Shown: piece after piece, positions 1-63,235 of the stretch
Numbering within the stretch: the first letter of the stretch is position 1
Layout: every line of letters starts with the position of its first letter
Origin: an uncultured Bacillota bacterium
Lineage (GTDB): Bacteria > Bacillota_I > Bacilli_A > RF39 > UBA660
Direction: 5' to 3'
Assembly: GCA_947165005.1 (NCBI GenBank)
Contig: CAMUYN010000003.1
Location: forward strand, 25,584-89,583
DNA length: 64,000 nt
The notes under the pieces: generated by a model
Seen by the model: only the letters and a program-made list of their open reading frames with translations
The model's database searches: none
Told to the model about the DNA's origin: nothing
Program-made: the position numbers and the translations under genes

Positions 1-3000
1 CAAATGTTGAATAACCTGAATAAATTTTAAAGTTATCGAAATGATTCTCTGTTGTAGTAATTTCAAATGTTGTGTCTTTAACATTTAATGTTCCATATCT
101 ACTATATATTCCTTCATCCTCAAAATTATAAAAATGTGAATTTTCTATTGTAAGACTTCCATTGTTTTCACCAACAAAATATGAATAACTATCTAAATTC
201 TTAATTATAGTAGTACCAGAATTATCTACTATTTTAGATGCAGTTGGTGTTCCACTATTATATGTTTGGCCATTATTATATACACCGCCATAAATATTAG
301 TTGTTCCACCAGAAACTGTTCTAATTGATGCATTTGCATTAGCTGCTCCATTATTTTCACAGTGAATCCATGGTGCATCAAATAAACTATCTGTACTTTG
401 ATCATTATCATTATTTAAATCAACAATATTAAGAATATTTCTATTGATTATTACATGTGCATTTATATTATGTAAATATGCTCCATTTAAGATATCAACA
501 GTACCACTATTATCGATTAAAGTAGATCCTGTAGATGATGTAATAATTCCTTCATCCTTTACAACCAATGTAGAATTACTATTATTCTTAAATAATAATA
601 TTCCATGATTAGTAGATACTTTTGCATCTATCAAATTAATAGTTCCATTATTATCAAATGCAGTAGTTCCAGATATTGCAATTATTTCACCAGTATTTCC
701 ATTACTACTATCTATAATAGTTAACTCACCATTATTTACAAATAACTTATCATTTGATTGTCTAATTGTTTTTCCATTTAAATCAAATGTAACAATATTA
801 CTAACAACAGCTGCTTCATCAATTGTTAAGTTATTATAATCATTTATCATTTGAAGTGTATCACCAGAATTTGCTTCATCAAATGCACTCTTTAAATCAT
901 AATATTTCTTTTCTATTCCAACTGATTGAGTAACATTTTTAATAACATATACTTTATCTAGGTAATTTGTCTTATAATCATCAGATGTACCAGATATTCT
1001 TCCATATCCAACTTCAAGATTAGTTATAGTTCCATAAGTAGGATCTGTTTTACCCATTAATATTCCATCATAGAAATTAATAGTACTACTTGAATTATAA
1101 ACACCATATGTAGTTCCTTTAATAATAGGATATGTCTTAGAAACAGCACCATCTATTTCTATTGATTCTCCTAAATTAAATGTTGAACTAGATAAGTAAA
1201 TAGCTCTTCCATTATCAGATATTATAGAACTATTCTTTTTAACATCCACACGTGATGAATATGAATTAATTGCTGCATTATTAAATGCCTCTATAGTAGA
1301 ATTTTCTATAATTAATAATCCTCTATTTTCTATTACTTCTCCACTACCTCTATTATAAAGATATGAACCCGAAATATTAATAGAATTATCATTATTAGAA
1401 TTATATTTATTTCTAATTAGGTGAGAATTCTTAACACCATATAAATCATCATTATCAGTACGATATCCTGAACCATTTGCTGTTCTATCAATAGTTGTAT
1501 TAGTAATACTAATATTTCCACCATTATTTTCTACAAATGAAGCTTTTATTTCAAATGTTGAATCACTAATAGTTAAACTACCAGTATTAATTAAGTTAGG
1601 ATGTAATCCTGATGTTCCACCAGTATTAAGATTAATAATATTTTCCATAGTTACATCATCTAAAGTTAATGTTCCTTGGTTTAATCCTATATGTGAATTA
1701 TCAGAAACAATTCCAGAAATAGTTGCAGTACCATAGTTATATATTAATTCACCCTTACTTGCTGTAGAATAATCTCTCCATGAACTATCATTATCTCGCC
1801 ATGTCCTACTAGCTATTCCATCATATGTACCACCAGAAACATTTAATGTTCCTAGAGAATTATTTACAAATATGGATGATGAATAAATATAATCAGCATT
1901 ATCTATAGTTCCTCTACGATATGCACTTTCTATAAATGAACTATTTGAATAGAAAGTACCATTCGTAATTATTGCAACTCCACTATTATTAACAATAGTA
2001 CCTGAATTTGTTTGTCTATAACCTAATTTATCATAATACTTAGTAAATACTCCACCAGAAATATTAAGATTTGAATTATTCAAAACAACTTCAGACTCTG
2101 TAGAACCAGCTTCCGAAACATAAGTACCACTTAATATATTTAAAGTTCCATTATTTACAAATATATTACCTGTTGTAGAATCAATCTTACCAACAATATT
2201 TGAATTAGTACTATCAATAGTATCTAATTCACCATTGATAATAAACATAGTATTATTATTGTTATCGATTATATTATTATTAATATCAAATGTAATCTTT
2301 AATCCACTTGGAATTGTAATTGGATTTTCAGATCTTGTTATTGTTATATTTCTTAATGCTTGAATAACATCATTATTATTTATAGTTCCATTAGATAAAT
2401 CAGTATTTAATTCATCTACTGAAGTATAAGATTTTCCTTGAGTAATATTTCTAAATACAGGTTCACTAGTTAAATATTTAGATTCAATATCACCAACACT
2501 ATCATAATCTCTATGTATTGAGTATCCATTTTCTACATTATCAATTGAAACATTGTATGCTTTTTGTCCACTAACTATTCCATCATAGAAATTAACTAAC
2601 AATGCTGGATTTGATGTATAAATACCATAAGATTTACCATTAATTATTGGTTTAGTATTTTCTTTAGAATCAACATTTCCATCATGAATACCTAAATTAA
2701 TTATTCCACTTCCAGAATTATTAATAGCAATATCATTAGACACATTGATAGTTCCACCTTCTATATTAGTTATACCTGTTGCACTTATATTTAATTTAGA
2801 ATTAATTGTTCCATTTTCAATTATCAATGAATACTGATTATTAGTATTATCTATTATCTTTCCTGAGCCACTAATTGTAAATGAATTTGAATAAGTACCA
2901 CTCTTTATTCTTAGAAGACCAGGGCTATTTAATGATCCTGATGGTAAAGTATTACTTTCCAATGTTAATATTCCTTCATTATATATTCTTTCAAATGTAG

Positions 3001-6000
3001 TAGTCATATTCTTAATAGTAGCAGTTCCACTACTATTTAAGAAATAATTTTCAATACCACCAGATACACTATAACTATTACCATCTAATGTAACTGTACC
3101 ACTTGTAAAGTTATAAACGAAATATTTTCCAGCAGATGATGTAACATTAGAATCTTTTACTGTTAGTGTTCCTTTATTATTAAACATGTTATTAGTATAC
3201 CAAAGATTAAATATACTTTCATTTGCAATAATAGTACCACTTTCTGTATTTGTAATAGCAACCTTATTGCTAACATTATTGTCATTACCAAAATCAAATT
3301 TGACTTTATCTAAAGTAACTACACCATTATTATTTTCTAAAATACTAATAGAATAATCATAGTTTCCAATATAAAGTTTACTTACTGTTAATGTCCCTTC
3401 ATTATATATATATTTATCACCATAATAACTATTCTTTCTTAATGAATTAGTACTATCAGTAATAGTTAAATTTCCTTGGTTATTAAATAAATATTTATCA
3501 GAATAAGATTTAACAATATGTCCATTATAATCAATTGTTACTGCTTTAGTATCAGAAATATTAATAGTATTTTGTTGATTTATATCAACAAGTAAATCAA
3601 TTTCATCTCCATTATTAGCAGCATCAACAGCATTCTGAATAGTTGTATATTTAGAATTATTAATTTGTGCGACATATGATTCTTCACCATCAGCTACTGG
3701 TCTTGAATTAGCATTAGAGACTAGAATAATCTTTTCTTTAGAATTATCAATTGATTTATAAATATCATATCCTTCTGGAACATTTTCTATATCGGAATTA
3801 ATTGCTGTATTCGCACTTATTGTTCCATCATAGAAATTAAATCTTCCAGAACCAACTATACCATAATTTGTACTTGAAATAGTTGGAGTATTAGACACTA
3901 CTGTAGATGAACCATTCAATAATGTTATTTTAGCATGACCATTACCAACATTTCCTTTTACTAATCCTGATGTAGAATAGTCTGGCATTTCTTCATTTCC
4001 AGTTTTCATTATTATATTTGATAAATTACTAGAAACATATGATGATCCACCGGTATATGATGATCCACCATAATATCCTCCACCACTATTTCTATCTCCA
4101 TAACCAAGAGTAGTTGAAGTTGTTTGATAGCCACCATAACAATTATCTGTATAATAACAAGATCCTCCACCACCAGCAACTATGATTCTTTGTTCATATG
4201 ATTCTGTACTTCTTCTAGAAGATACAACACCATTATCATAATACCAAGTATTATCTTCACTAGATAGAGAAATATCAGTAGCTCCTCCACCAGTTCCTGG
4301 TACAGTCCAATCATTATAGTATCCAGTTGTTGCTCCTCCACCATTATATGCACCATAATATGATCTTAATGCATTCCAGTATGTTCCAGATGAACCATGA
4401 CCACCAACATGGATATACAATTTATCTCCTTTATTTAGAGTAATTGTTCCTGAAGCATAAGCTCCAAATCCACCTCTATAGATTGATTTATATCCACTAC
4501 TCCATCCATTTGCATCGGATGCGGCGGCTCCCCAAGTTTCAAGTTTATAAGTTCCTGTTTGTGGTGCAGTAAATACTTCTTGTGCACCAGTATACCCAAA
4601 TTCATATTCTGTATCTACATTCTTTTCATCAGAACCAATTGTTACAACACCATTATTATTAATAGCAGTACCAAAGCTTGAATCAATATATGTATTACCA
4701 GTTATATTTAAATAAGGAGTAACATAATTCTTAGTATTATTAAATACTGTGGATTTAGCTCCATTAACATTATTAAATCTTGTATTATATACAGTCATAT
4801 AATAATCATTATCTACTATATCCTTATTAGAAGTAGCTGTAGAGTTTACTATTGAATTCTTCAATAATAATTTAGAAACATATTCTATTCCACCTCTACT
4901 GTAATTACCATCTTCATTAAATATAATAGTTCCTGAACCAGTAAGAGTCGAATCATTTATAACTGCTTCTCCTCTATTATTAATATAGTTTAAAGTAGAT
5001 GAATTAATAGAAACATTACCAAAACTATTATAAAGTGTTGTTAAACTCGAATTATTTATAGATACCATTCTTGGAGATGATTCTAATGAAACTGAACCAT
5101 ATAAACTAGATGAATTTATTGTAAATCTAAGTGGGAATGCCTGTGGTGTGAAATAAATTGAATCATTTCCAGTTGATGAAATATTAGAGTTACTAATAAT
5201 TGTATTTCCAGTAGCATATTCTCTAAATCCTTCTCCAGCACCAGTTACATTAATATTTGTATAAGTAACATCAGCAACAGCTTCATTTCTTATACCCTTG
5301 GCATCAGTTGGTGTTGTTACAACTTTTATACCAGAAATACTTGGATCATTACTTCTATTATAAAGTCCTGTAGAGTTATTTCCTATAGCATTAATAACAC
5401 CACTAGATGAAACTATATCACCATTTGTTTCGTTATAAATACCAATAGTTCCAGCATTATTAGCATTGATAATTGCACCTTCACCAATTATTAATTTTCC
5501 TCTGTTTACAATACCATATTTAGAATTAATGTTAATATTAATAGCCCCACTGGATAAATTTAATGTAGCATGTTCTTCATTTAATAAAATACTAGATGTA
5601 GTAGATGTAATAGTTCCATTAACTGCTTCAGAAACTATATTATTATATGATACTTCTGAATCTATATCTATATTATCTACATCAACTGAACTATCGAAAT
5701 CTACTTCACTTAAATAATCTTTAAATACAGGTAATGTTTTAACATTATATGTTTTAGGTAAATTTTTTTTCATTTCTTCAAGTTCTTCATCAGTAATGTC
5801 AAATGTAATCTTTGCATAACCATCATTTGCTTTTGCACATTTACTAACTGGATCAGAACTAAATCCATTAGGACAATTTTCACTATCTATATATTCAGTA
5901 GAACCCTTAGTACTAATTGTAAATATGTCTTTATCATTATTCACATCAGTAGCTTCCGTACAGTAATAACAATACATTGCTTTGTTATCAAGTGATTGAT

Positions 6001-9000
6001 TTCCGATATAACCGGAACCTCCTCCACCACCTGTACAGTAGTTAGTACCAGCAGCTCCTCCACCGTAGTAGCCTCCTCCTCCAGCACCACCTAAGTATCT
6101 GCTAGAAATATCACTTTCAGTTTGACCACCTTGTCCAAATGAACCTTTTCCAAGTGAAGGATTATATTTATAATATCCGCCTGAAGACTGAGTTCCACCA
6201 GTTCCATATCTATTGCTTTCAGTAGTACCACCATTGTTTCCAACGTATCCACCGGCAGAACCACCAGCTCCATATTCACCATAATCCCAGCGTGAAGATC
6301 CTCCTCCACCACCAGCAACTATAAGAATTGAACTTTGATCACTCTCTAATTCTGAAAGAATACCCTGAGAAGTAGCAATGTGAGTTGCTCCTCCACCAGA
6401 ACCAGAATCAAATTGTGAACCATTTCCGTGATATAAGACAGCATTACCACCACCGTTATATCCACCTTGTGCAGTTGTGTTGCTACCATGAACAGATTTA
6501 CCAGCACCACCTACATTAATATATAGTGTATCTCCCGCAGTTAATTCTACTGTACCTACAGAATAACCACCATATCCTCCGTAAATAGAGTTGCTATATG
6601 AACCACCTTGTGCACCCCATACTTCTAACTTGTATGTGCCTGTAAATCCTACATTAAATGTTTCTTCATGTCCACTATATGGAATTTCTTTTCTTAATGA
6701 ATTATCAATTATATATTCTTCACTTGGTTCACAATTTTCACATAAACCAGCGTATTCATTATACTCAGTTAAATCAGCAAGATACTTATTTTTTGCCTCA
6801 TTATATAATCTTGCTTGTTCTGTTTTATAATTGATATTTCTCTTTCTATTTTCTTCAAATTTTCCATCAATTATCTTTAAATTACCATTATTTTTAATTA
6901 CATAATCATTCTTATTAGATGTTAATGTAAATCCATTTAAATCCAATATTACTTCTTTTTCTTCTGGAACCTCAATAGCTGAATCAAGTGTAATTTGTTT
7001 TAATATTTCAATTGTGTCTACTTCTTGATTTAATACTGGATTATCAAAATATATTTCACTAATTGTCGAATAATTATTTGCATTAATTGAATATGCATCT
7101 TCTAAAGAATTACAATACCTAATTTCTTTAATAAAGAATTTATCTGATTCAGTATTATATGAACCACTCTTAGTATATAAGAAATGGACATAATTAACTT
7201 TATTCTTTTGTAATCTTAAAATTCCAGTTTGATTTTCTTTTACACCGCTAACATAGATTTCTCTTCCAGATGTTCCTGATGGAACTGATGTAGAATCAGT
7301 TACATAGACTGAACCATAATTATATGAATGAGAACTAATTGTTGCATTTACATATAAATATTTATCTTCATTAACATTAGTTAAATCATACATTATATAA
7401 GAATGTGCTGTTGAATTAGCAACTCCTGCATTATTACTTATAAATGAAGCTTCAGTAGGAATCTTAGAATTACTTCCATCCAGATTAAGAATTATATTAT
7501 CTGGATTATTTATTTCTTCTGGAGTTATTTCCTTATTATATACTTTTATATTATATATAGTACCATTCCAATAGTTACCATTACTTCCTGCTCTACCAAT
7601 ATATGCATTAGTAGTAGCTCCAGTTATTCGCCATGTACCGCCTTTTGTTAATTTAGTACCATCATAATATACTTCATAATTTCCTTCTTTATATGTAGTT
7701 AATATACTATGTTTACTACCATTATTAAAGTTTGATGGTCTATTATACCATGCAGCATCACTACCTACTCCATTAGATACTTGAATTCTTCCATCAGATA
7801 ATCCAACTACTATCCTCTCTCTAGAAGATCCCATATAAATAACCATATTATTAGTACTAGTTGTTGAGAATTCTGTATATACTGATTCTTCATAATTATT
7901 TAAATTATAATTAGATGTATCTACATATCCATAATCATTATTACCATCAAATAATAAACCTGTACTCTGTGAATTTAATATTGGTCCATTTAATATAGCA
8001 TTATTATGATTTGATGAAGAATCTTTCCAAGTAAATAAATCATAATCAATATTATTGAAATAATATGTATCATTATTATTATGTAATAATGTGCTTTGAG
8101 ATAATATATTTTCACCTTTAGCATTAGTTAAAGCCACATTATTAATTGTGAATGTATCATCTCCACCATGATTACCATTATAATTATAATAGCAGAAATG
8201 AACATAATTAAGTTCTCCTGGTGTTAAAGAAATAGTATAAGTTCTATTTGATACAACACCATACATATCAAACTTCTTAATAGATGATGCTGAATCATAA
8301 TTTAAGAAATTTTCATTATTTGAAACATAAACATATCCATGATCATTATTATTTAAACTTGAGATACTTGCATTTACAAGTATATTAAAGCCTTCAGTTT
8401 GGTCTCTTAAATCATATATTATATAAGAATGTGCATAAGTGCCTCCAAGGAAAGGATTAGTACTCTTATAAGAACCATCATCTTGTCTTTCAAACGAATA
8501 TCTATTAGTATCATTAAGTAATGCAAAATCACTTGTTTCTTGTCTTTCACCAAGTATATTAAAATTAGATATTTTAAATATTTCTATAGGGTTAATGTCC
8601 CCTCCACCTTTAACAAATCCAAAGTATAAATAATATGCTTTACCTTTAGTTAACTTGTATATTTTATTACCATTAATATCATTACCTGTACTTCTATATA
8701 TTTGAGTACCTGTACTACTTAATGTTTCACTAATTGATATATAACCATAAGAATCAGAATTATATGTATCGGCAAATGTAGTAAATGTTAAGAATTTATC
8801 TTCTTCTTCATCAGTTAAATCTAATTTTAGATATGATATAGCTGTTGTATTAGAAGTTGAATTATTACCATTAACAATAGTTTCATTTACTGCATCATAG
8901 ATAAATCCATAATCACCATATTGTTTTATCTTAGATAACATTTTTTCTTTTTCTTCTTCAAATGTTCCTGAATTTGAAGAATCAAATGCATTATCTACAC

Positions 9001-12000
9001 CACTATCTTTTAATTTTGCATAATATGTACTCTTAATTCTTGCCTGTGGATCAGTTACCCTAGCAAGTTTTGCGACATTTTTATAATTTTCTGTAATAAA
9101 TATTACGTTATATGAATATTGTGTAATAGCGTCAGCACCATTATTAATTAATGCAAGTGTATCTGCTACTAATTTACCATCATAGAAATGAAATTCATCG
9201 TTTTGTTCAAGTGCTGCTGTCTTTCCTTCTATAATAGGTCTATCCATCTCTGGATTAATAAATGTATCACTAACTTCAGAACTTCCCTCACCTAAAATAA
9301 ATGTACCATTATTAACGATTGCTTTATTAACAGTATTTTTTACTGTTCCAATAGTATTATCTGATCTAGGATTTCTATCAACAATCTGTAGTTTTCCATT
9401 ATTTACAAATGTTGCAGAAGCATCACTTGTAATACCTCTTCCATCTAAATCTATTGTTATATCTTGGTCAGCTGCAACTATGATATTTTCATTAACAACT
9501 GGAATAGTTGGATTTGTTTGAATTGTACATTGTACATTAGCGCAATAATTAACTGCACTTTGTATACTATCAAATAGTAAGAATTCTCTTCCTTGATCAA
9601 CCACAATTTCTTTAGTATCAGAATCAACTGTATACCATAGTATTCCATTCTTTCCTACTACTCTAGCTATATATGGATTAGTTCTTACCTCTACTTCTCT
9701 TTCTGAAACATTACCAACATAGTCTTCTGCTACTATTTTAACAATATATTCTGTATCTTGTTCTACACCATAGAATGTATGATCATAGTTTTCTGCATGA
9801 TCCTTAACTCCATCAAATATAGGTGATTCATAAGTTAAATTTTCATCATATATTAATGCTGATTTTTCTCTAGCATATAAAGTAAATTTCTTAACTCCTG
9901 ATCCTGCATCTTGAGCAGTTCCACTGACAGTCATATTAAATGACGCAGCTCCTGTTCCAGGATTATTAATAGTTGGACTAATAGTATCAACATTAACTAT
10001 AGTTTCATTAGTATCAGTACTATAAATATTACTCTTCTTAGAAACTGCTGTTATAGTTTCATTTGAATATACTTTAAATGGTTCTGTATATAAAGTAAGT
10101 GCACCATCACCAATCTTATAATATAATTCATATTCATTATGTTCACTTGATAATGTTACTAAGACACCGCAATTTTCTGTAGATGAATTACCACAAACCC
10201 AAGTTTTATTAGTTTCATTATCTAAACTTGGAGTTATTTCTATCATTGGAGATATAACTTCTTCATAAACAGCATATAAATTTTTGTCTTCAGTAATTAA
10301 AGTATTAAAATCATATTCATTTATTCCATCTTCTGACCAATATAAGAATATATGATGTCCTTTTGTTGGAATTGAAGAAGGAATTGTAGCTTTACTATTC
10401 CAATTCACGTCCTCGGTAGTAAATAATGCAGATTCATTATAGAAATTAACATCATACTTACTTATCTCATAGTGAGCCACCAAATGTTTGTTTCCTGTAG
10501 ATCCTGTTGGAATTCCCGTAACAATAACATTATCAATTGTATAATTTATAAATTCGTATCCTTCCTTACTAGGATTATTTAATAGTATATCTGGAGTTTC
10601 AATATTATATGTAGATGGATTTGTTTTTCCATCATCTAAACTACCACCATCATAATCATAAGTAAGATTATAAGTAATTGGTTCATAATTAGCTGTATAA
10701 CTTCTATGTCCTGTAGATCCTGTTGGAATTGTAACAACTAAATTAGTATTTCCAACTAAATCTGTACCTTCCCATCCAATAAAATTATAACCAACTTTTG
10801 ATGGATTATTTAGTGTTATACTAGCACTATCAACAGAATACTTAGTTGGATTATCTTGTTCTACTTTTCCATTATTTAATGTATACGAAATAGTGTATTC
10901 TATCTTTTCAAAATTAGCTGTATAATTTCTATTTCCAGTACTACCTTTTAATACTATTACTGAAGTAGATTTATTAGCAATATCCGTTCCACTCCATCCA
11001 AGGAAATTATATCCTTCTCTTTGTGGATTGCTTATTGAGAATGTTGCTGTTTCTACATCATATGTAGTTGGATTATTTAGCGCTACCATCTCAGCTTGTG
11101 TTAATCCAGAATAATTAATACTATATGTTATTTTTTCAAAATTAGCTACATAGCTTCTATTTCCAGAGCTACCTTTTGGAATTGTTACTTCTGTTGATGT
11201 CCCTGTTATTCCTGTTCCACTCCATCCAGTAAAATTATAACCAGGTTTTGATGGATTATTTAGTGTAAATGTTTCTGTTTTTCTCATATATGTAGATGGA
11301 TTTGTTTTACCAGGTTCATATACTCCATCATTTAAGTTATATGTAATATTATAAACATCTTCATTATCATGCCATTCAGCAGTATATTCTCTATCTCCTA
11401 TACTTCCTTTTGGAATACTTACATTTATTGATATATTTCCATTTCCATCATTCCATCCAGCAAAATCTTCTATACTTAAGCCTTGTCCATCTTTTCTAGA
11501 AGCCGGAATATTTAACGTAAATGTATCTGTCTCAACATTATATGTTGTTGGATTTTTTAATAAGTTTCTTTCTTCAGTAGTTATTCCTTCATAAGATATG
11601 TTATATGTAATAGGGGTATAGTGTGCCACATAGTTTCGTACTCCTGCACTTCCTTTAGGTATTGTTACTGTCGTTGATGTTCCAGTTATTCCTGTTCCGC
11701 TCCAGCCAGCAAATGTATAACCAGGTTTTGATGGATTATTTAATGTAAATGTGGTTGTACTTCTCTTATATGAACTTGGATTTGGTTCTCCTAAAGTTCC
11801 ACCATCAAGATCATATGCAATTGGATAACTATCTTGGTTTTCATGCCATTCAGCTGTATATGTCTTATTTCCTATACTTCCTTTTGGAATACTTACATTT
11901 ATTGATATATTTCCATTTCCATCATTCCATCCAGCAAAGTCTTCTAAATTAAGCCCTTGTCCATCTTTTCTAGAAGCCGGAATATTTAACGTAAACGTAT

Positions 12001-15000
12001 CTGTCTCAACATTATATGTTGTTGGATTTTTTAATAAGTCTCTTTCTTCAGTAGTTATTCCGCTATAAGTAATATTATAAGTTATTGCTTCATAATTAGC
12101 AGTATATGTTCTATTACCTGAGCTTCCTTTAGATATTGTTACTTCTGTTGATGTTCCAGTTATTCCTGTCCCACTCCAACCAGTAAAATTATATCCTGGT
12201 TTTGATGGATTATTTAATGTAAATGTGGCCGTACTTCTCTTATATGAATTTGGATTTGTTTTACCAGGTTCAAGTGCTCCACCATCAAGATCATAAGTGA
12301 TTGAATAATCATTTTGATTTTCGTGCCATACAGCTGTATATGTCTTATTTCCTATACTTCCTTTTGGAATACTTACATTTGTTGATGTATTTCCATTTCC
12401 ATCATTCCATCCAAGGAAATCTTCTGAATCATTGCCATGTTCATCTTTTCTTGTACTTGGAATATTTAATGTAAATGTATCTGTCTCAACATTATATGTT
12501 GTTGGATTTTTTAATAAATTTCTTTCTTCAGTAGTTATTCCTTCATAAGATATGTTATATGTAATAGGGGTATAATGTGCTACATAGTTTCTTACTCCCG
12601 CACTACCTTTAGATATTGTTACTACTAGTGATGTTCCATCAATTTCTGTTCCACTCCATCCAGCAAATGCATAACCAGGTTTTGATGGATTATTTAATGT
12701 AAATGTGGCTGTACTTCTCTTATATGAACTTGGATTTGTCTTTCCAGGTTCAAGTGCTCCGCCATCAAGATCATATGTAATTAAATAGCTATCTTGGTTT
12801 TCGTGCCATTCAGCAGTATATGTTCTATTTCCTATACTTCCTTTTGGAATACTTACATTTATTGATATATTTCCATTTCCATCGTTCCATCCAAGAAAAT
12901 CTTCTAAATTATTACCATGTTCATCTTTTCTTGTACTTGGTTCATTTAATGTAATAGTTTCTGACTCAATATTATATGTTGTTGGATTATTTAATAAATT
13001 TCTTTCTTCAGTAGTTATTCCTTCATAAGTTATATTATATGTAATTGGGGTATAGTGAGCTACATAGTTTCTTACTCCTGCACTACCTTTAGATATTGTT
13101 ACTATTTCTTCTGTTCCAGTTATTCCTGTCCCACTCCATCCGGCAAATTCATATCCTTCTTTTGATGGATTATTTAATGTAAATGTCTCTGTGCTTCTCT
13201 TATATGAAGTTGGATTTGTCTTTCCAAGTTCAAGTGCTCCACCATCAAGATCATACGTGATTAAATAACTGTCTTGATTTTCTCCCCATACAGCAGTATA
13301 TGTTCTATCATCTATACTTCCTTTTTCAATTGTTACATTGATTGATGTATTTCCATTTCCATCATTCCATCCAAGGAAATCTAGTAAATTATTACCATGT
13401 TCATCTTTTCTTGGATCAGGATTATTTAACTTAAATGTATTTGTTTCAACATTATATGTAGTAGGATTATTTAATAAGTTTCTCTCTTCTTCTGTTATTT
13501 CATTATAAAGAATATTATAAGTATTAATTTCATAAGCAGCTGTTAGTGTTGCATCTTCGTCATTAAATGTAAATGTATTATTTAGGAATACTCCACCGCC
13601 AGTTTTATCATATCTTATAAAACTATAACCTCTTTTTACTGATTCTGCTATTTGTCTTATAGTTCCATAATCTTCTTCATATGTAACAACAGATGCATTA
13701 TCTAAATATGTTCCTCCATTTGGATCAATTGATAATGTAGATTTTTTTATCGCATAGCAAGCAGTATATTCTCTATCTCCAACACTACCTTTTTTAATTT
13801 GTAAATTTAATGTTTCTTCAGTTAAATCTGTTCCTACCCAACCGATAAATGTATATCCCTCTTTACTAGGATTATTCAATGTGAATTCATCACTTACAGT
13901 ATAAGTACTTGGATTATCTTCAGGTAAAGTACCACCATCTAAATTATACTCAATGTTATATGTATTAATTTTATACTTTGCATATAAAGTTAAATCTTCC
14001 TGTACATTTTCATCGTTATAACATGTTCCATTTGCTTCATAACATTTAAATGTATATCCCTTATAAGTAGGAGCATCAATTATATCGATAGCATTTCCTT
14101 CTTCAACTTCTTTTGTACCTATTATAATTTCTTCCCCAGTATTAGGATTTCTATCAATAAATGTTATTGTATATTTATTATTTTTAATTTTTCCAAATAA
14201 TACTATATCCTTAGTAACAGTATTATCAAAATTATATTTATTTGTATATTCTTTATCGGTATACCAACCATCAAAATCTTCTATTCCTGGATTAATATTT
14301 TCAATCTTTTCTAGCGAAGATACATATTCTTCTCTAAATATTTTATTATTTAAATAATAAGCAACATATTTATAGTCTTCTCCACTAGTAATAGCGGTAT
14401 TAATATAATTTCTTGCTTCATTAGTTTTTACTATATCTAAAACTAAACTAGCACTTGTTTTTTCATACGCACCCAATTCTTTATCTTCAATTGCTGTATA
14501 GAATAAATATTTTCCATCTTTCTTCCATCCTGGGTTTTTATTTTCATCAAACGAAAGACCATCTGGAATAATATCCTTTAATACAGTTAATGTACCTTTA
14601 ACTTCACCAGTATTTTTTATATTGATTTTATAATAAATAGATCCCTCAATTGTTTTTGCATTCTTAACAGATCTAACTACTTTAGGTTCTTCGTCATATT
14701 CAAACGTTTCTTTTTTGCCATTTACAATTAAATCTAATTTACTAATAGATTTTTTTATTTCTGCATTAAATGGTTCTACTTCTCTAACAACTATATTTAA
14801 TATTCTTCTATTTTCATCAGTTGTTTCTTCTGTATACCTAACTACTTGATATTTTTCTTCCTCAAGTTTTACTTCATATGTATCTACATCCCCTAAACTA
14901 AATGTATATTCACCATTTTCTTTTGTATAAGTTCTTTTTATCTCTTTATCATCCTTTGATAAACTAAGTTCAAGTCCTTTATACATAGTTCCAGTTTCAT

Positions 15001-15523
15001 CAAAAACTTTTCCTTCAACACTTCTTCCTGTTATTACTACAGGATCTACATTTATTTTTGATTTAGATTCATCTTCACTATTGATTTTAAATTCTGGAGT
15101 AATAGCCACACCATATGGAGCATTTTCTACTACAACAGTTATTACTGGATTATTCTTAGTAGTTGTTATTGTAATGTTTCTTCCATTATTGCTAACAACA
15201 GAATCTTTTATTTCTTTAAATCTTGCATATTTATTTTCACTATTAGTTAAACTTCCAGTTATTACTGCAACATCTTCACTTAATTTATTAATTTTTAATT
15301 TATATTTTATTTCATCATAGTTATTAGAAGAAACGCCGTCATCAACTCCATCTATAACAGAAGCATTTAATGATGTTGTTTTAGATAATACATTTTTTAT
15401 GTTTATTTTTTTAACAGAAGGATTTAGAATTGTAAATAATCCCGCAACAAAAACTAATAGCATTGCTATTATTAGTAAAGTAGTATATTTTTTTGTTTTG
15501 AGATTTCTTAGTTTATGATTCAT
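1..15523 (-). CDS. Giant (>5170 aa) secreted surface protein, 5' end at 15523, 3' end beyond window start; signal peptide, CnaB-like domain, >=12 Listeria-Bacteroides (Flg_new) repeats, LamG-like domain, two ALK-type glycine-rich domains, parallel beta-helix repeats
   Basis: ATG at 15523-15521 with GGAAGG RBS 9 nt upstream. N-terminus MNHKLRNLKTKKYTTLLIIAMLLVFVAGLF is a signal peptide. The frame has no stop through position 1: the ORF track shows no long minus-strand ORF with a stop in 1-15523, and I hand-translated the 5' kilobases, ~9480-9420, ~7620-7560, ~6300-6180 and the last 120 nt without meeting a stop. 480-bp tandem repeats between ~10500 and 13500 carry Flg_new motifs (e.g. TYNIEYNLDGGTL...EGYTFIGW). 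TGTYKLEVWGAQGG and YKLETWGAA glycine-rich modules lie at ~6650-5900 and ~4700-4300. N/S/T/G-rich beta-helix-like repeats fill 1-4200. Confidence 0.8.
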   Translation of the reverse strand, partial: MNHKLRNLKTKKYTTLLIIAMLLVFVAGLFTILNPSVKKINIKNVLSKTTSLNASVIDGVDDGVSSNNYDEIKYKLKINKLSEDVAVITGSLTNSENKYARFKEIKDSVVSNNGRNITITTTKNNPVITVVVENAPYGVAITPEFKINSEDESKSKINVDPVVITGRSVEGKVFDETGTMYKGLELSLSKDDKEIKRTYTKENGEYTFSLGDVDTYEVKLEEEKYQVVRYTEETTDENRRILNIVVREVEPFNAEIKKSISKLDLIVNGKKETFEYDEEPKVVRSVKNAKTIEGSIYYKINIKNTGEVKGTLTVLKDIIPDGLSFDENKNPGWKKDGKYLFYTAIEDKELGAYEKTSASLVLDIVKTNEARNYINTAITSGEDYKYVAYYLNNKIFREEYVSSLEKIENINPGIEDFDGWYTDKEYTNKYNFDNTVTKDIVLFGKIKNNKYTITFIDRNPNTGEEIIIGTKEVEEGNAIDIIDAPTYKGYTFKCYEANGTCYNDENVQEDLTLYAKYKINTYNIEYNLDGGTLPEDNPSTYTVSDEFTLNNPSKEGYTFIGWVGTDLTEETLNLQIKKGSVGDREYTACYAIKKSTLSIDPNGGTYLDNASVVTYEEDYGTIRQIAESVKRGYSFIRYDKTGGGVFLNNTFTFNDEDATLTAAYEINTYNILYNEITEEERNLLNNPTTYNVETNTFKLNNPDPRKDEHGNNLLDFLGWNDGNGNTSINVTIEKGSIDDRTYTAVWGENQDSYLITYDLDGGALELGKTNPTSYKRSTETFTLNNPSKEGYEFAGWSGTGITGTEEIVTISKGSAGVRNYVAHYTPITYNITYEGITTEERNLLNNPTTYNIESETITLNEPSTRKDEHGNNLEDFLGWNDGNGNISINVSIPKGSIGNRTYTAEWHENQDSYLITYDLDGGALEPGKTNPSSYKRSTATFTLNNPSKPGYAFAGWSGTEIDGTSLVVTISKGSAGVRNYVAHYTPITYNISYEGITTEERNLLKNPTTYNVETDTFTLNIPSTRKDEHGNDSEDFLGWNDGNGNTSTNVSIPKGSIGNKTYTAVWHENQNDYSITYDLDGGALEPGKTNPNSYKRSTATFTLNNPSKPGYNFTGWSGTGITGTSTEVTISKGSSGNRTYTANYEAITYNITYSGITTEERDLLKNPTTYNVETDTFTLNIPASRKDGQGLNLEDFAGWNDGNGNISINVSIPKGSIGNKTYTAEWHENQDSYPIAYDLDGGTLGEPNPSSYKRSTTTFTLNNPSKPGYTFAGWSGTGITGTSTTVTIPKGSAGVRNYVAHYTPITYNISYEGITTEERNLLKNPTTYNVETDTFTLNIPASRKDGQGLSIEDFAGWNDGNGNISINVSIPKGSIGDREYTAEWHDNEDVYNITYNLNDGVYEPGKTNPSTYMRKTETFTLNNPSKPGYNFTGWSGTGITGTSTEVTIPKGSSGNRSYVANFEKITYSINYSGLTQAEMVALNNPTTYDVETATFSISNPQREGYNFLGWSGTDIANKSTSVIVLKGSTGNRNYTANFEKIEYTISYTLNNGKVEQDNPTKYSVDSASITLNNPSKVGYNFIGWEGTDLVGNTNLVVTIPTGSTGHRSYTANYEPITYNLTYDYDGGSLDDGKTNPSTYNIETPDILLNNPSKEGYEFINYTIDNVIVTGIPTGSTGNKHLVAHYEISKYDVNFYNESALFTTEDVNWNSKATIPSSIPTKGHHIFLYWSEDGINEYDFNTLITEDKNLYAVYEEVISPMIEITPSLDNETNKTWVCGNSSTENCGVLVTLSSEHNEYELYYKIGDGALTLYTEPFKVYSNETITAVSKKSNIYSTDTNETIVNVDTISPTINNPGTGAASFNMTVSGTAQDAGSGVKKFTLYAREKSALIYDENLTYESPIFDGVKDHAENYDHTFYGVEQDTEYIVKIVAEDYVGNVSEREVEVRTNPYIARVVGKNGILWYTVDSDTKEIVVDQGREFLLFDSIQSAVNYCANVQCTIQTNPTIPVVNENIIVAADQDITIDLDGRGITSDASATFVNNGKLQIVDRNPRSDNTIGTVKNTVNKAIVNNGTFILGEGSSEVSDTFINPEMDRPIIEGKTAALEQNDEFHFYDGKLVADTLALINNGADAITQYSYNVIFITENYKNVAKLARVTDPQARIKSTYYAKLKDSGVDNAFDSSNSGTFEEEKEKMLSKIKQYGDYGFIYDAVNETIVNGNNSTSNTTAISYLKLDLTDEEEDKFLTFTTFADTYNSDSYGYISISETLSSTGTQIYRSTGNDINGNKIYKLTKGKAYYLYFGFVKGGGDINPIEIFKISNFNILGERQETSDFALLNDTNRYSFERQDDGSYKSTNPFLGGTYAHSYIIYDLRDQTEGFNILVNASISSLNNNDHGYVYVSNNENFLNYDSASSIKKFDMYGVVSNRTYTISLTPGELNYVHFCYYNYNGNHGGDDTFTINNVALTNAKGENILSQSTLLHNNNDTYYFNNIDYDLFTWKDSSSNHNNAILNGPILNSQSTGLLFDGNNDYGYVDTSNYNLNNYEESVYTEFSTTSTNNMVIYMGSSRERIVVGLSDGRIQVSNGVGSDAAWYNRPSNFNNGSKHSILTTYKEGNYEVYYDGTKLTKGGTWRITGATTNAYIGRAGSNGNYWNGTIYNIKVYNKEITPEEINNPDNIILNLDGSNSKIPTEASFISNNAGVANSTAHSYIMYDLTNVNEDKYLYVNATISSHSYNYGSVYVTDSTSVPSGTSGREIYVSGVKENQTGILRLQKNKVNYVHFLYTKSGSYNTESDKFFIKEIRYCNSLEDAYSINANNYSTISEIYFDNPVLNQEVDTIEILKQITLDSAIEVPEEKEVILDLNGFTLTSNKNDYVIKNNGNLKIIDGKFEENRKRNINYKTEQARLYNEAKNKYLADLTEYNEYAGLCENCEPSEEYIIDNSLRKEIPYSGHEETFNVGFTGTYKLEVWGAQGGSYSNSIYGGYGGYSVGTVELTAGDTLYINVGGAGKSVHGSNTTAQGGYNGGGNAVLYHGNGSQFDSGSGGGATHIATSQGILSELESDQSSILIVAGGGGGSSRWDYGEYGAGGSAGGYVGNNGGTTESNRYGTGGTQSSGGYYKYNPSLGKGSFGQGGQTESDISSRYLGGAGGGGYYGGGAAGTNYCTGGGGGSGYIGNQSLDNKAMYCYYCTEATDVNNDKDIFTISTKGSTEYIDSENCPNGFSSDPVSKCAKANDGYAKITFDITDEELEEMKKNLPKTYNVKTLPVFKDYLSEVDFDSSVDVDNIDIDSEVSYNNIVSEAVNGTITSTTSSILLNEEHATLNLSSGAINININSKYGIVNRGKLIIGEGAIINANNAGTIGIYNETNGDIVSSSGVINAIGNNSTGLYNRSNDPSISGIKVVTTPTDAKGIRNEAVADVTYTNINVTGAGEGFREYATGNTIISNSNISSTGNDSIYFTPQAFPLRFTINSSSLYGSVSLESSPRMVSINNSSLTTLYNSFGNVSINSSTLNYINNRGEAVINDSTLTGSGTIIFNEDGNYSRGGIEYVSKLLLKNSIVNSTATSNKDIVDNDYYMTVYNTRFNNVNGAKSTVFNNTKNYVTPYLNITGNTYIDSSFGTAINNNGVVTIGSDEKNVDTEYEFGYTGAQEVFTAPQTGTYKLETWGAAASDANGWSSGYKSIYRGGFGAYASGTITLNKGDKLYIHVGGHGSSGTYWNALRSYYGAYNGGGATTGYYNDWTVPGTGGGATDISLSSEDNTWYYDNGVVSSRRSTESYEQRIIVAGGGGSCYYTDNCYGGYQTTSTTLGYGDRNSGGGYYGGSSYTGGSSYVSSNLSNIIMKTGNEEMPDYSTSGLVKGNVGNGHAKITLLNGSSTVVSNTPTISSTNYGIVGSGRFNFYDGTISANTAINSDIENVPEGYDIYKSIDNSKEKIILVSNANSRPVADGEESYVAQINNSKYTTIQNAVDAANNGDEIDLLVDINQQNTINISDTKAVTIDYNGHIVKSYSDKYLFNNQGNLTITDSTNSLRKNSYYGDKYIYNEGTLTVSKLYIGNYDYSISILENNNGVVTLDKVKFDFGNDNNVSNKVAITNTESGTIIANESIFNLWYTNNMFNNKGTLTVKDSNVTSSAGKYFVYNFTSGTVTLDGNSYSVSGGIENYFLNSSGTATIKNMTTTFERIYNEGILTLESNTLPSGSLNSPGLLRIKSGTYSNSFTISGSGKIIDNTNNQYSLIIENGTINSKLNISATGITNIEGGTINVSNDIAINNSGSGIINLGIHDGNVDSKENTKPIINGKSYGIYTSNPALLVNFYDGIVSGQKAYNVSIDNVENGYSIHRDYDSVGDIESKYLTSEPVFRNITQGKSYTSVDELNTDLSNGTINNNDVIQALRNITITRSENPITIPSGLKITFDINNNIIDNNNNTMFIINGELDTIDSTNSNIVGKIDSTTGNIFVNNGTLNILSGTYVSEAGSTESEVVLNNSNLNISGGVFTKYYDKLGYRQTNSGTIVNNSGVAIITNGTFYSNSSFIESAYRRGTIDNADYIYSSSIFVNNSLGTLNVSGGTYDGIASRTWRDNDSSWRDYSTASKGELIYNYGTATISGIVSDNSHIGLNQGTLTLDDVTMENIINLNTGGTSGLHPNLINTGSLTISDSTFEIKASFVENNGGNISITNTTIDRTANGSGYRTDNDDLYGVKNSHLIRNKYNSNNDNSINISGSYLYNRGSGEVIENRGLLIIENSTIEAFNNAAINSYSSRVDVKKNSSIISDNGRAIYLSSSTFNLGESIEIDGAVSKTYPIIKGTTYGVYNSSSTINFYDGILMGKTDPTYGTITNLEVGYGRISGTSDDYKTNYLDKVYVIKNVTQSVGIEKKYYDLKSAFDEANSGDTLQMINDYNNLTIDEAAVVSNIVTFDLNGKTIRQSNDKLFVNNGELTIIDSSNGNTGEIIAISGTTAFDNNGTINLIDAKVSTNHGILLFKNNSNSTLVVKDEGIITSSTGSTLIDNSGTVDILNGAYLHNINAHVIINRNILNIVDLNNDNDQSTDSLFDAPWIHCENNGAANANASIRTVSGGTTNIYGGVYNNGQTYNSGTPTASKIVDNSGTTIIKNLDSYSYFVGENNGSLTIENSHFYNFEDEGIYSRYGTLNVKDTTFEITTTENHFDNFKIYSGYSTF

Positions 15524-15660
15524 CTACTTAACCTTCCATTATTATATAATATAATTATATAATAAATGTACTATTTTAATCAACAAAAATAGACTATTTT
15601 TTTATAAAAAAGGCATGTTTTTTTTAATATGGTATAATTAAATTGTAGGGAGGTAAAAAA

Positions 15661-17933: not shown

Positions 17934-17941
17934 AATTACTC

Positions 17942-26254: not shown

Positions 26255-26788
26255 TTAGTTATTTAAAGATTTTAAATATTCTTCAATAACTAATATCATA
26301 TCTGGAGATAATATTTCATTTCTTTTGTTATTAGGCATATTATTTCTAATAATATCTATCGATTCATTTAATGGGAACGATTCTAACTTAAAATGATGAT
26401 TCTTTTCTGATTCAGTTAATTTAATTTTACTCATATCAGGTTCTTTAGTAGTTTCTATTAAGTAATAATTTATTTCATTTTTTCTATTTTTTCCTTTTTC
26501 AGGCCAATCTCTATTCATAAAAGTAACTTTCATAAGTATATCTTTTACTTCAGAATCATCTATTTCTATTCCGGTTTCTTCCATTATTTCTCTTTTTAGA
26601 CATTCATCAATAGTTTCACCTTCATCAAGATGTCCACCAGGAAATTCAAATAACCCATCTTCATTAGCAATTAATATATTATTAGTATTTGTATTAACTA
26701 TTAGTGCTTTTGCTCTTATAACAGTTTCTGTTATATCTTCGTTAGTTAAATTATCATTGTTATGAATTATTTCTTTCATATAAATCAC
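26255..26788 (-). CDS. NUDIX hydrolase
   Basis: Nudix box GGHLDEGETIDECLKREIMEETG. Confidence 0.8.
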   Translation of the reverse strand: MIYMKEIIHNNDNLTNEDITETVIRAKALIVNTNTNNILIANEDGLFEFPGGHLDEGETIDECLKREIMEETGIEIDDSEVKDILMKVTFMNRDWPEKGKNRKNEINYYLIETTKEPDMSKIKLTESEKNHHFKLESFPLNESIDIIRNNMPNNKRNEILSPDMILVIEEYLKSLNN

Positions 26789-62734: not shown

Positions 62735-63235
62735 TTATAACTCTCTTTTTGCTTTTATAATAAATCTCTCTTGATTATTATTAGTACAAGTTATTAAATA
62801 TAGACTTTTATCTTCATTAAAATATGAGAAATCATCTACTTTAATCACCTTTTTATCTACAACCTTATAATTATAATCTGTTATAAAATTACTAATAATA
62901 ATCTGATCATCTATATTTAAATTATATATTTTATTAAAAACATACTTATTATTATGACCTGCTAGTATAACTCTATTACCATCTATTTTGTCAGAAAAAT
63001 TTGTTAATTCAACTAAGTTTTCATCTAACGATTCATCTCCTTCTTTAATCAAATTTTTATAATCAAATTTAGGAATATAGATAAACCCAGAATATATATT
63101 ATTAATATTATTATTTTCTATGACTTTTTCTACTTTTTTCTTCAGATTTATTTCTTTAGTTACAGGAATAAACAATATAAATAAAGAAACAATTAAGAAT
63201 ATCTTAACTAGTTTTCTTAATAAAGACATAACCAA
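62735..63235 (-). CDS. Sortase (membrane-anchored transpeptidase)
   Basis: N-terminal TM anchor, ILAGHNN catalytic His and LYLITCT catalytic Cys motif (TLxTC), conserved Arg near the C-terminus. Confidence 0.7.
   Translation of the reverse strand: MVMSLLRKLVKIFLIVSLFILFIPVTKEINLKKKVEKVIENNNINNIYSGFIYIPKFDYKNLIKEGDESLDENLVELTNFSDKIDGNRVILAGHNNKYVFNKIYNLNIDDQIIISNFITDYNYKVVDKKVIKVDDFSYFNEDKSLYLITCTNNNQERFIIKAKREL

Follow-up and report, generated by a model that had tools for sequence, protein, structure and literature searches.

The giant open reading frame at the left edge of the window (the whole stretch of 64,000 nucleotides analysed here) probably encodes a fibrillar-adhesin-like surface protein of about 5,650 amino acids (aa), belonging to uncultured gut or rumen Bacilli. 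This reading is based on the intactness of the reading frame, the domain content, the predicted folds of the glycine-rich domains and the beta-helix modules, the collinear relatives, the sole hydrophobic segment at the N terminus, and the sortase gene in the window. The protein is of a known kind, well formed, and does not represent a new biological system; we infer the adhesin role from its architecture. The positions of all features are given in Table 1.

The reading frame and its relatives

Re-translation of the minus strand from the ATG at position 15523 gave 5174 codons with zero in-frame stops, exactly the single uninterrupted frame that the preliminary description had claimed. From the base composition, about 486 stops are predicted over this length, and the other two minus-strand frames carry 404 and 935. 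The 5' end of the gene is complete. The ATG is preceded, at a distance of 8 nt, by the ribosome-binding site GGAAGG and, at 15583-15554, by the promoter-like sequence TTGATT-N18-TATAAT; both are consensus matches only. As the frame exits the window at position 1, the protein is incomplete, and the gene is truncated at its 3' end by the left window edge. Elsewhere in the window the gene has chromosomal housekeeping neighbours (rmlB, RecG, PFOR, TypA, and a T-box leader).

The complete relatives are 3,656 to 5,802 aa long and form, together with the window protein, an uncharacterised family in metagenome-assembled genomes of uncultured gut and rumen "Bacilli." Two relatives, P0134 and L081, are collinear with the window protein at 52 to 53% identity and extend about 490 aa past the window end, which gives the full length of about 5,650 aa and agrees with the earlier claim that the C-terminal anchor lies outside the window. 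In a scan of metagenomes L081 was the one relative found (45% identical), and its frame is open to the locus edge. A scan of genome contigs with the last 500 aa of the window protein gave no relative, and no record matched the product of the neighbouring rmlB gene exactly.

It is very improbable that the locus is non-functional, either as an assembly chimera across the repeats or as a decaying pseudogene. Repeats can mislead assemblers, and at one relative locus (L083) the gene is split into four reading frames by frameshifts and a scaffold gap. Here, however, the frame stays open over 15.5 kb in DNA of 26 to 30% G+C, against the number of stops expected, it is collinear from end to end with independent relatives, and it is preceded by a good ribosome-binding site. 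Moreover, the repeats, as described below, are different enough in DNA to be easy to assemble, which argues against a chimera.

Table 1. Features of the giant gene and the sortase gene, in window coordinates (aa, residues of the giant protein)
Feature	Position	Strand	Basis
Upstream region	15524..15600	-	GGAAGG ribosome-binding site and TTGATT-N18-TATAAT, consensus matches only
Giant open reading frame, 5174 codons	2..15523	-	No stop versus ~486 expected
Basic stretch and ~20-residue hydrophobic segment, aa 1-34 (signal peptide or signal anchor)	15422..15523	-	Hydropathy
Conserved N-terminal tip domain, aa ~53-160	15044..15367	-	Family profile A5
Prealbumin-like domain, aa 168-237 (earlier "CnaB-like")	14813..15022	-	CarboxypepD_reg and SdrD_B, sub-threshold
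DUF11-like domain, aa 283-383	14375..14677	-	PF01345, 23.8 bits versus cut-off 24.6; TIGR01451, 23 versus 24
Array of ~18 Listeria-Bacteroides (Flg_new) repeats, aa 416-1760	10244..14278	-	PF09479, PF18998, TIGR02543
Five tandem units of 480 bp (160 aa), each made of two Flg_new-type repeats	11063..13456	-	Tandem Repeats Finder and pairwise identity
FN3-like domain, aa ~1835-1930	9734..10021	-	Family profile A6
Short beta-helix-like module A, predicted, start cap and FYDG end cap, aa 1985-2150	9074..9571	-	Paralogy to module E
X1, first copy of uncurated ~115-aa module, aa ~2218-2335	8519..8872	-	Weak similarity to X2 and X3
X2 module, aa ~2355-2470	8114..8461	-	Similarity to X3
Laminin_G_3/ConA-like lectin domain, aa 2530-2672	7508..7936	-	PF13385
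X3 module, aa ~2697-2812	7088..7435	-	Similarity to X2
Module B start cap, then helical linker, aa 2830-2945	6689..7036	-	Paralogous to module C start, E 2.6e-6
Glycine-rich domain 1 (GRD1), ALK/LTK type, aa ~2946-3241	5801..6688	-	PF12810, AlphaFold2 (AF2), Foldseek
Module B solenoid body, aa ~3290-3650	4574..5656	-	AF2 for aa 3305-3470
Glycine-rich domain 2 (GRD2), more divergent, aa ~3655-3890	3854..4561	-	PF12810
Module B end cap with NFYDG motif, aa 3891-3935	3719..3853	-	Paralogous to module C end, E 5.6e-8
Beta-helix module C, aa 3936-4345	2489..3718	-	AF2 model, Foldseek
Beta-helix module D, aa 4346-4855	959..2488	-	AF2 model, Foldseek (shared with module C)
Beta-helix module E, aa 4856-5174, cut by window edge	2..958	-	Paralogous to A, C, and D; collinear with relatives
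Sortase-domain gene, candidate processing enzyme	62735..63235	-	PF04203, E 3.5e-16

N-terminal region

The hydrophobic segment at the N terminus is the only 19-aa stretch in the whole 5174 aa with a Kyte-Doolittle hydropathy above 1.6, and the basic and hydrophobic layout is common to all complete relatives. A signal peptide had been claimed here. The basic n-region and the 20-residue hydrophobic core are indeed present, but an A-x-A cleavage site is not evident, so that both a signal peptide and a signal anchor are possible. The profile of the tip domain that comes next gave one weak match, to the NEAT domain of Hal (4ymp; E 0.005), and the domain may possibly be a NEAT-like beta-sandwich. 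We make no claim of haem binding by the tip domain, as the NEAT match is too weak and the family alignment has no conserved tyrosine columns. For the domain previously described as having a CnaB-like fold, related prealbumin-fold families do match, all of them just below the Pfam cut-offs (CarboxypepD_reg with 31.3 bits against 32.3, SdrD_B with E 0.014), but Cna_B itself was not matched in Pfam.

The Flg_new array

The Flg_new repeat is present in a large array. PF09479 matched 11 stretches (E 1e-65; 217.9 bits against a cut-off of 27), TIGR02543 matched 13 stretches (328.5 bits against 20.95), and PF18998 matched the array at E 3e-25. Counting of the motif gives a total of about 18 repeats, which bears out the claim of at least 12. 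Within the array, Tandem Repeats Finder reports a period of 480 bp with 4.9 copies at 11140-13489 and 84% matches. The preliminary description had called these units near-identical and had quoted a 56-nucleotide block as recurring four times. The block does occur in four copies, 3 to 4 nt away from where they had been placed (at 11405, 11879, 12359 with 3 mismatches, and 12839 with 2 mismatches; 0 expected by chance). When compared pairwise, however, the five units have only 74 to 88% identity in DNA and 65 to 85% in protein, so that "near-identical" was an overstatement, and the longest exact runs that they have in common are 26 to 69 nt. With these values they differ from the repeats of periscope proteins, whose length-variable stalks are defined by highly identical DNA repeats that permit frequent changes in copy number. 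The copy number of the 480-bp unit across species-level relatives is 5, 3, 3, 1, and 0.

FN3-like, LamG, and X modules

Between the array and the glycine-rich domains there is a group of smaller modules. The profile of the FN3-like domain matches the FnIII domain of chitinase A1 (1k85; E 3e-4), as well as FN3 domains of titin, Dscam, and Tie2. The LamG/ConA-like module of the preliminary description was confirmed by Laminin_G_3 (PF13385; 40.3 bits against a cut-off of 27.6, E 4.5e-10) and by Laminin_G_1 (34.2 bits against 24), with the motif NGNYWNGTIYNIKVYN lying at 7535-7582, close to the position of about 7600 given for it; in the PDB it has weak matches to neurexin LNS domains. Three copies of an uncurated module flank this domain, in the order X1-X2-LamG-X3. 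Over 115 aa, X2 has 34% identity to X3 (E 7e-13), and a profile built on 32 sequences of the module (A3) gave no match in Pfam or PDB searches. PDB sequence searches of the regions without an assigned domain returned nothing useful.

Glycine-rich domains

Both ALK-type glycine-rich domains that had been claimed were recovered. GRD1 matches PF12810 (ALK_LTK_GRD) with 126.6 bits, covering positions 7-242 of the 243 in the profile, and GRD2 with 79.1 bits in two stretches. The fold of GRD1 was also confirmed, since its AF2 model has a pLDDT above 90 and each of the top 21 PDB matches in Foldseek is a GRD structure of ALK or LTK (E 4e-7 to 7e-5, probability 1.0). The likeness to the GRDs of ALK and LTK (7lrz, 7nx1, 7mzy, and 9g5i) is one both of sequence, with a score that clearly exceeds the Pfam cut-off, and of fold. 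The bacterial domains differ in that they are present twice, have 16 to 20% identity and TM-scores of 0.3 to 0.44, and apparently lie inside a beta-helix module. TNF-like, EGF-like, and kinase domains, which belong to the receptor context, were not detected by Pfam in the giant protein. The match is one of domain family only and not of the ALK/LTK receptor family. In animals, the ALK/LTK glycine-rich domain binds ligand. A search of the literature on bacterial PF12810 proteins gave nothing relevant.

Both GRDs apparently sit within beta-helix module B. The start-cap region of this module has low AF2 confidence, with only the linker helices in the model, so that the placement of the GRDs inside the module rests on sequence paralogy.

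Predicted beta-helix modules

The C-terminal part of about 1,240 aa is predicted to consist of serial right-handed beta-helix modules, and this is supported by structure models. The AF2 model of modules C and D (pLDDT 84.6, pTM 0.75) has three short strands per approximately 22 to 24 residues, stacked as rungs into a solenoid, in keeping with the three-stranded rungs of about 22 to 25 residues that characterise the right-handed parallel beta-helix fold. In Foldseek, the top 50 matches of this model are all right-handed beta-helix proteins, at weak E-values (best 0.013). In module B, residues 3305-3470 form regular short strands (pLDDT 75 to 90), with weak fold matches to pectate lyase and pectin methylesterase. 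Modules A and E are paralogues (E 6e-5), and the FYDG of module A lies at aa 2113. No match to the Beta_helix, PbH1, or Pectate_lyase families was obtained in Pfam up to E 0.5 over aa 3400-5174, and no PDB sequence match was found. The claim of more than 1300 aa of beta-helix-like repeats is therefore without Pfam support, yet AF2 and Foldseek back the fold, although with weak E-values. Taken over the whole translated frame, of the families that had been expected in the preliminary description, Flg_new, PF12810, and Laminin_G_3 scored above their cut-offs, whereas Beta_helix/PbH1 and Cna_B gave no match up to E 0.5.

The predicted three-strand rungs and long uninterrupted solenoids resemble those of Ag43, Hap, EspP, PfbA, pectate and alginate lyases, and phage tailspikes. 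In contrast to these proteins, with which there is no detectable sequence similarity, the giant protein belongs to a Gram-positive-type organism, would have a sortase-like or transmembrane anchor and not an autotransporter barrel, and has modules with family-specific caps (start, Y.T[IL]Q.A[IV]..A...[ILF]DLNG; end, NFYDG...GY).

These fold matches raise the question of whether the protein is a surface-tethered polysaccharide-degrading enzyme, with one or more of the beta-helix modules as active lyases or hydrolases of the pectate/alginate-lyase or tailspike type and the LamG and X modules as carbohydrate-binding modules. The best Foldseek matches include PL6 alginate lyases, pectin methylesterases, AlgE epimerases, and phage tailspike depolymerases, the host habitat is gut or rumen, and LamG has the fold of the ConA-like lectin/glucanase superfamily. 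We consider this unlikely: there is no lyase, hydrolase, or Beta_helix match in Pfam or NCBIfam even at E 0.5, the fold matches are weak (E 0.013 or higher) and are equally to the non-enzymatic adhesins Ag43, Hap, PfbA, and EspP, and the modules are mutually paralogous with conserved caps, which is stalk-like.

Putative C-terminal anchor and sortase

The C terminus was studied in the relatives. The final elements of the complete relatives are, in this order, a prealbumin-like domain, the motif [IL]QTG, a hydrophobic helix, and a basic tail of Lys/Arg, with the conserved pattern A-x-L-[IL]-[IL]-x-[IL]-Q-T-G...[RK]..Y followed by the helix and the basic end. [IL][QK]TG is present in 33 of the 34 distinct C-terminal tails, 32 to 42 residues from the end. 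This distance falls inside the range of 17 to 45 residues from the C terminus that is used to predict sortase substrates (PMC4155245). An LPXTG or S-layer-homology end had been expected, and instead these tails score 12.2 to 15.3 bits with TIGR01167 (LPXTG_anchor), below its cut-off of 15.9. We interpret the C terminus of the relatives as a putative non-canonical anchor that resembles a sorting signal. It is similar to LPXTG-type substrates in its tripartite layout (a T-G motif, about 20 hydrophobic residues, and a basic tail) and in how far the motif lies from the C terminus, but differs from them in the TIGR01167 score and in the motif, which is without proline and has isoleucine or leucine at position 2; nor is [IL]QTG among the sortase motifs given in PMC9210967. 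The nearest precedent, the proposed NVQTG signal of Clostridioides difficile CbpA, is similar in having a hydrophobic residue and glutamine before T-G. In vitro, however, SrtB of C. difficile does not cut NVQTG (PMC4155245), and we give less weight to this precedent. The C-terminal domain and tail were also considered as a widely reused anchor cassette, and this was rejected, with only 21 matches, each of which was a short fragment from the end of a contig and belonged to this family.

The sortase encoded in the window reaches 44.2 bits with TIGR01076 (cut-off 39.35) and no sortase class model, and is divergent. A sortase gene directly beside the giant gene was found neither here nor in the contigs of two relatives. 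This divergent sortase could conceivably process the [IL]QTG tail, or another enzyme could do so.

The C terminus also bears on contact-dependent toxin delivery, in which a filament would carry a terminal toxin domain as in polymorphic toxins. The very large size and the beta-helical filament are as in CdiA/FHA-type proteins, but all complete relatives end in the prealbumin-like domain and the membrane-anchor tail, and Pfam and NCBIfam detected no toxin family, and no enzyme family either, across all 5174 aa. Such a role is hardly to be expected.

A proposed model of a fibrillar-adhesin-like protein

The protein has the large length and the rod-like region of repeated stalk domains that characterise fibrillar adhesins (PMC9210967), a definition in which Flg_new is treated as a stalk domain. 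It is like fibrillar adhesins and the giant "InlB B-repeat-containing" surface proteins of Firmicutes in its size, the putative N-terminal export signal, the stalk of tandem Flg_new repeats, the putative Ig-like and prealbumin-like domains, and, in the relatives, the end that resembles a sorting signal. It differs from them in having no module from a curated family of adhesive domains (Laminin_G_3 and PF12810 are not established bacterial adhesive domains) and in its hybrid stalk, with about 18 Flg_new repeats and at least 4 predicted beta-helix modules.

According to the model that we propose, the basic and hydrophobic N-terminal segment would direct the chain through the Sec pathway, and the C-terminal helix with its Lys/Arg tail, present by homology, would hold the protein at the membrane. 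Cleavage at T-G, by the divergent sortase or by a different transpeptidase, would result in linkage to the wall. The at least four serial right-handed beta-helix modules beside the anchor may form a rigid stalk, and the Flg_new repeats a second, more flexible one. Binding parts may lie between the two stalks, namely, the X1-X2-LamG-X3 cluster as a lectin-like beta-sandwich group, the FN3-like domain, and the two GRDs projecting from one beta-helix module. The N-terminal tip, with the conserved tip domain, the prealbumin-like domain, and the DUF11-like domain, would likely be a binding part too. The likeliest ligands would be glycans of host mucus, plant fibre, or other microbes.

The same architecture could serve in cell-cell cohesion or as a structural fibre of the envelope, for example in a biofilm matrix, in self-association, or as a spacer layer. 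The fold matches include beta-helix autotransporters that self-associate (Ag43; 4kh3), the family is confined to one lineage, the module copy numbers drift, and there is no recognised adhesive domain. However, the LamG domain and the two GRDs suggest recognition of a specific ligand, and we think it improbable that cohesion is the main role. This explanation overlaps with that of a fibrillar-adhesin-like protein; the sole difference is the binding partner.

The attachment of gut bacteria to mucus, to fibre, and to each other depends largely on giant surface proteins, which in uncultured lineages are mostly unannotated. The locus described here is an intact and well-delimited example with a full module map, placed among relatives of 3.7 to 5.8 kaa. 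It offers three leads: an uncurated family of domains of about 115 aa on both sides of LamG, a putative C-terminal signal, [IL]QTG, which is conserved but non-canonical and would be missed by standard sortase-motif screens, and bacterial ALK-type glycine-rich domains that appear to lie within a beta-helix stalk. Unless they are confirmed experimentally, these leads do not alter the current understanding. A further idea, to which we give only limited credence, is that the [IL]QTG tail is an unrecognised surface sorting signal in a lineage of uncultured gut/rumen Bacilli and that, at the same time, the GRDs are ligand-binding cassettes, placed in beta-helix stalk modules at a constant site directly behind the start cap. 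If this is true, the giant-protein family would serve as a model, in bacteria, of ligand binding by the ALK/LTK glycine-rich fold.

Results

As the preliminary description had it, the giant frame is open throughout: it begins at the minus-strand ATG at 15523 and extends to position 2 of the window, 5174 codons with no stop. About 486 stops are expected from base composition over this length, and the other two minus-strand frames contain 404 and 935; the giant ORF is therefore a genuine coding sequence. Its DNA has a G+C content of 25 to 32%. The start codon has a GGAAGG ribosome-binding site 8 nt 5' of it, and a promoter-like TTGATT-N18-TATAAT is found further 5' at 15583 to 15554. Because the frame leaves the window at position 1, the protein is C-terminally incomplete there.

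Domain searches recovered most of what had been read from the sequence alone (see the table). The Listeria-Bacteroides (Flg_new) repeats, put initially at 12 or more, number about 18 by motif count, and the LamG/ConA-like module and both ALK-type glycine-rich domains (GRDs) are found by their Pfam models. For the proposed CnaB-like fold, the matches to prealbumin-like families stay below their cut-offs. In the family alignment, the tip domain has no conserved tyrosine columns. X1 to X3 are copies of an uncurated module; X2 and X3 share 34% identity (E 7e-13), and a 32-sequence profile of the modules found no match in Pfam or the PDB.

Domain map of the visible giant protein (residue i begins at window position 15523-3(i-1))
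Feature	Residues	Evidence or remark
Lys/Arg-rich stretch and ~20 hydrophobic residues	1-34	sole strongly hydrophobic segment
Tip domain, family-conserved	~53-160	one weak profile match, B. anthracis Hal NEAT domain 4ymp, E 0.005
Prealbumin-like domain	168-237	CarboxypepD_reg 31.3 bits (cut-off 32.3); SdrD_B E 0.014
DUF11-like domain	283-383	23.8 bits (cut-off 24.6)
Flg_new array	416-1760	PF09479 E 1e-65 (11 stretches); PF18998 (4 stretches); TIGR02543 (13 stretches)
FN3-like domain	~1835-1930	family profile against chitinase A1 FnIII 1k85, E 3e-4; also titin, Dscam, Tie2
Module A, short, beta-helix-like	1985-2150	paralogy
X1	~2218-2335	~115-aa module; similarity among copies
X2	~2355-2470	as X1
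Laminin_G_3 domain	2530-2672	40.3 bits; between X2 and X3
X3	~2697-2812	as X1
Module B	2830-3935	apparently encloses GRD1 and GRD2 (PF12810)
GRD1	~2946-3241	PF12810, 126.6 bits
GRD2	~3655-3890	PF12810, 79.1 bits
Module C	3936-4345	paralogy and model
Module D	4346-4855	paralogy and model
Module E	4856-5174	paralogy and model; cut by window edge

The beta-helix modules are related to one another (C to D, D to E, and A to E). The first ~115 residues of module B resemble the start of C (E 2.6e-6) and its last ~55 the end of C (E 5.6e-8), which indicates that GRD1 and GRD2 both lie within a single solenoid module. An AlphaFold2 model of residues 2830 to 3470, based on a 26-sequence alignment, has a mean pLDDT of 77, with GRD1 above 90, the start cap (2830 to 2896) below 50, and short strands at regular spacing after GRD1 (3305 to 3470) at 75 to 90. 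When this model was compared with the PDB by Foldseek, the top 21 matches were ALK/LTK glycine-rich-domain structures (E 4e-7 to 7e-5, probability 1.0); below these came weak matches to pectate lyases and pectin methylesterases. In P0137, a relative of 5802 aa, the solenoid module next after GRD2 has a third GRD (residues ~4390 to 4700) directly behind its start cap, the same position relative to the cap as that of GRD1 in the window protein. At sequence level, this suggests a preferred insertion point just after the start cap. The domain is not rare in bacteria, as PF12810 gave 2167 matches in bacterial proteins among 8000 scored candidates, often paired with Flg_new, Laminin_G_3, Ig-like or prepilin N-methyl domains. 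In many of these proteins, of ~700 to 1300 aa, the prepilin N-terminal methylation domain PF07963 is present as well; in such cases type IV pilin-like proteins seem to present the GRD.

Within the Flg_new array, the 56-nt block quoted in the preliminary description does recur four times, where chance would give none, at positions 3 to 4 nt from those first listed: 11405, 11879, 12359 (3 mismatches) and 12839 (2 mismatches). At 11140 to 13489, Tandem Repeats Finder detects 4.9 copies of a unit with a period of 480 bp and 84% matches. The five delimited units (11063 to 13456) are clearly related but not near-identical, with 74 to 88% identity in DNA and 65 to 85% in protein, and their longest common exact runs are 26 to 69 nt. 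At such DNA identity the array is ill suited to frequent homologous recombination. Family members vary in how many 160-aa double-repeat units they have (five in the window protein, three each in P0134 and P0135, one in P0137, none in others), so the array has expanded and contracted on an evolutionary timescale.

When 1.84 billion representative proteins were searched in full by HMMER with residues 1890 to 2870, 211 relatives were found, the giant ones including proteins of 5058 (P0134), 5473, 5802 (P0137), 4487, 4031, 3944, 3894, 3798 and 3656 aa. The complete relatives share the N-terminal basic and hydrophobic segment. P0134 is collinear with window residues 828 to 5169 at 53% identity and continues for 486 residues past the point matching the window's end, so the complete window protein would be about 5,650 aa long. 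The product of the metagenomic locus L081 is collinear with residues 1484 to 5156 (52% identity) and extends ~500 aa beyond; it too is only partly visible, since the frame is still open where the locus starts. At another locus (L083, 6252 to 22355), two frameshifts and a stretch of N break a relative at 51 to 54% identity into four successive ORFs of 1183, 1949, 1639 and 453 aa, through assembly error or decay; the window copy is intact.

The prediction that the anchor lies outside the window is supported: the relatives extend ~490 to 500 aa beyond its end, through one more beta-helix module and a prealbumin-like domain, and finish in a conserved tail. This reads A-x-L-[IL]-[IL]-x-[IL]-Q-T-G-x-x-[RK]-x-x-[YF], where A, T and G never vary and L, Q and Y hardly do; ~20 hydrophobic residues and an end rich in Lys and Arg come after it. 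The tail resembles a cell-wall sorting signal in layout and position, with [IL][QK]TG 32 to 42 residues from the end in 33 of 34 distinct tails, but has Ile or Leu in place of Pro. It is not the LPXTG or S-layer-homology end that had been expected, and it scores 12 to 15 bits with the NCBIfam LPXTG_anchor model (cut-off 15.9). The closest published motif is NVQTG of C. difficile CbpA, which was only proposed, and purified SrtB failed to cleave NVQTG (PMC4155245). The C-terminal domain and tail were found in this giant-protein family only.

C-terminal anchoring of the family proteins is well supported; covalent sortase-type attachment is no more than a hypothesis. Neither in the window nor in the contigs of two relatives does a sortase adjoin the giant gene. 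The window encodes a small, divergent sortase (62735 to 63235, minus strand, 166 aa) that scores above the generic sortase cut-off but fits none of the class models. Just upstream of it (62735 to 64000 region, minus strand), an ORF with CnaB/SpaH-pilin-like repeats runs off the window's right edge; it ends in IMPITSKEN, a hydrophobic helix and KKTS, another non-canonical sorting-signal-like tail. A cell-wall polysaccharide with rhamnose, and hence a walled cell, is hinted at by rmlB (dTDP-glucose 4,6-dehydratase; 15661 to 16677, plus strand), whose transcription diverges from that of the giant gene, and by a GT4 glycosyltransferase gene (33393 to 34427, plus strand); this bears on anchoring.

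Besides rmlB, the neighbours of the giant gene are housekeeping genes (TadA-like deaminase, PnuC, RecG, PFOR and TypA) and a T-box leader, and this neighbourhood has no sign of phage or plasmid origin. TypA is 97% identical to that of the MAG "Bacillales bacterium Tb.RUG.455" and 80 to 86% identical to those of rumen/gut MAGs labelled Bacilli, Tenericutes, Erysipelotrichaceae or Clostridium sp. CAG:433; the organism is therefore an uncultured, low-G+C gut or rumen member of Bacilli. Four ORFs of 190 to 348 aa among the housekeeping genes (within 17361-18607, 19504-20550 and 30223-31086, minus strand) had no Pfam match, and NCBIfam, against which three of them were run (190, 221 and 348 aa), likewise gave none.

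Several other loci were seen in the window. The cluster at 34424 to 40103 (minus strand) looks like a SipW-type fibre-subunit operon, the window's second surface-fibre system. In it, four paralogous ORFs of 206 to 250 aa (39 to 44% identical), all starting with a TasA/camelysin-style signal (...SLGVAFAxFSxxLNINGTA), accompany genes for a DUF5305 protein and a long S26 signal peptidase; just upstream is a 123-aa ORF (39732 to 40103) with a C-terminal hydrophobic helix. A 788-aa protein (23291 to 25657, minus strand) combines an N-terminal TIR domain (TIR_2 39 bits, ThsB_TIR) with a WD40 beta-propeller and has weak PADLOC matches to SAVED_TIR and PDC-S66; its neighbours are at 25667-26242 and 26255-26788. 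An adjoining NUDIX hydrolase matches the PADLOC candidate family PDC-S07 (E 2e-12), and the region may be a defence locus. Two tyrosyl-tRNA synthetase genes (405 and 431 aa) stand in tandem at 40200 to 42975 (minus strand). The T-box leader between them, at 41450 to 41631 (RF00230, 99 bits), would control only the downstream copy. Two more class-I (Trp/Tyr-type) synthetase-like ORFs lie at 45875-46897 and 47699-48292 (minus strand); the 197-aa one covers profile positions 31 to 220 of 292 and looks truncated.

Discussion

The product of the intact gene starts with an export-type segment and combines a stalk-type repeat array with lectin-like, glycine-rich and beta-helix modules, and its relatives end in a conserved C-terminal anchor. 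No catalytic domain, and no enzymatic or toxin family of Pfam or NCBIfam, was detected in the visible 5174 aa. Such a protein would be exported by the Sec pathway and retained at the membrane or wall by its C-terminal tail. The beta-helix modules would form a rigid, cell-proximal stalk, with the Flg_new array as a flexible stalk distal to it, and putative binding modules in mid-protein and at the N-terminal tip may contact glycan-rich ligands. If a beta-helix rises ~0.48 nm per rung of ~23 residues and a Flg_new repeat spans ~3 to 4 nm, the extended molecule would, as a rough estimate, exceed 100 nm.

In its large size and repetitive stalk, and in the anchor of its relatives, the protein fits the description of the fibrillar adhesins, where Flg_new is treated as a stalk domain and many anchors remain unknown (PMC9210967). 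The initial reading was largely right. What the protein and its family add is modest: an uncurated domain family, a non-canonical but conserved C-terminal signal, and glycine-rich domains that are apparently embedded in a beta-helix module.
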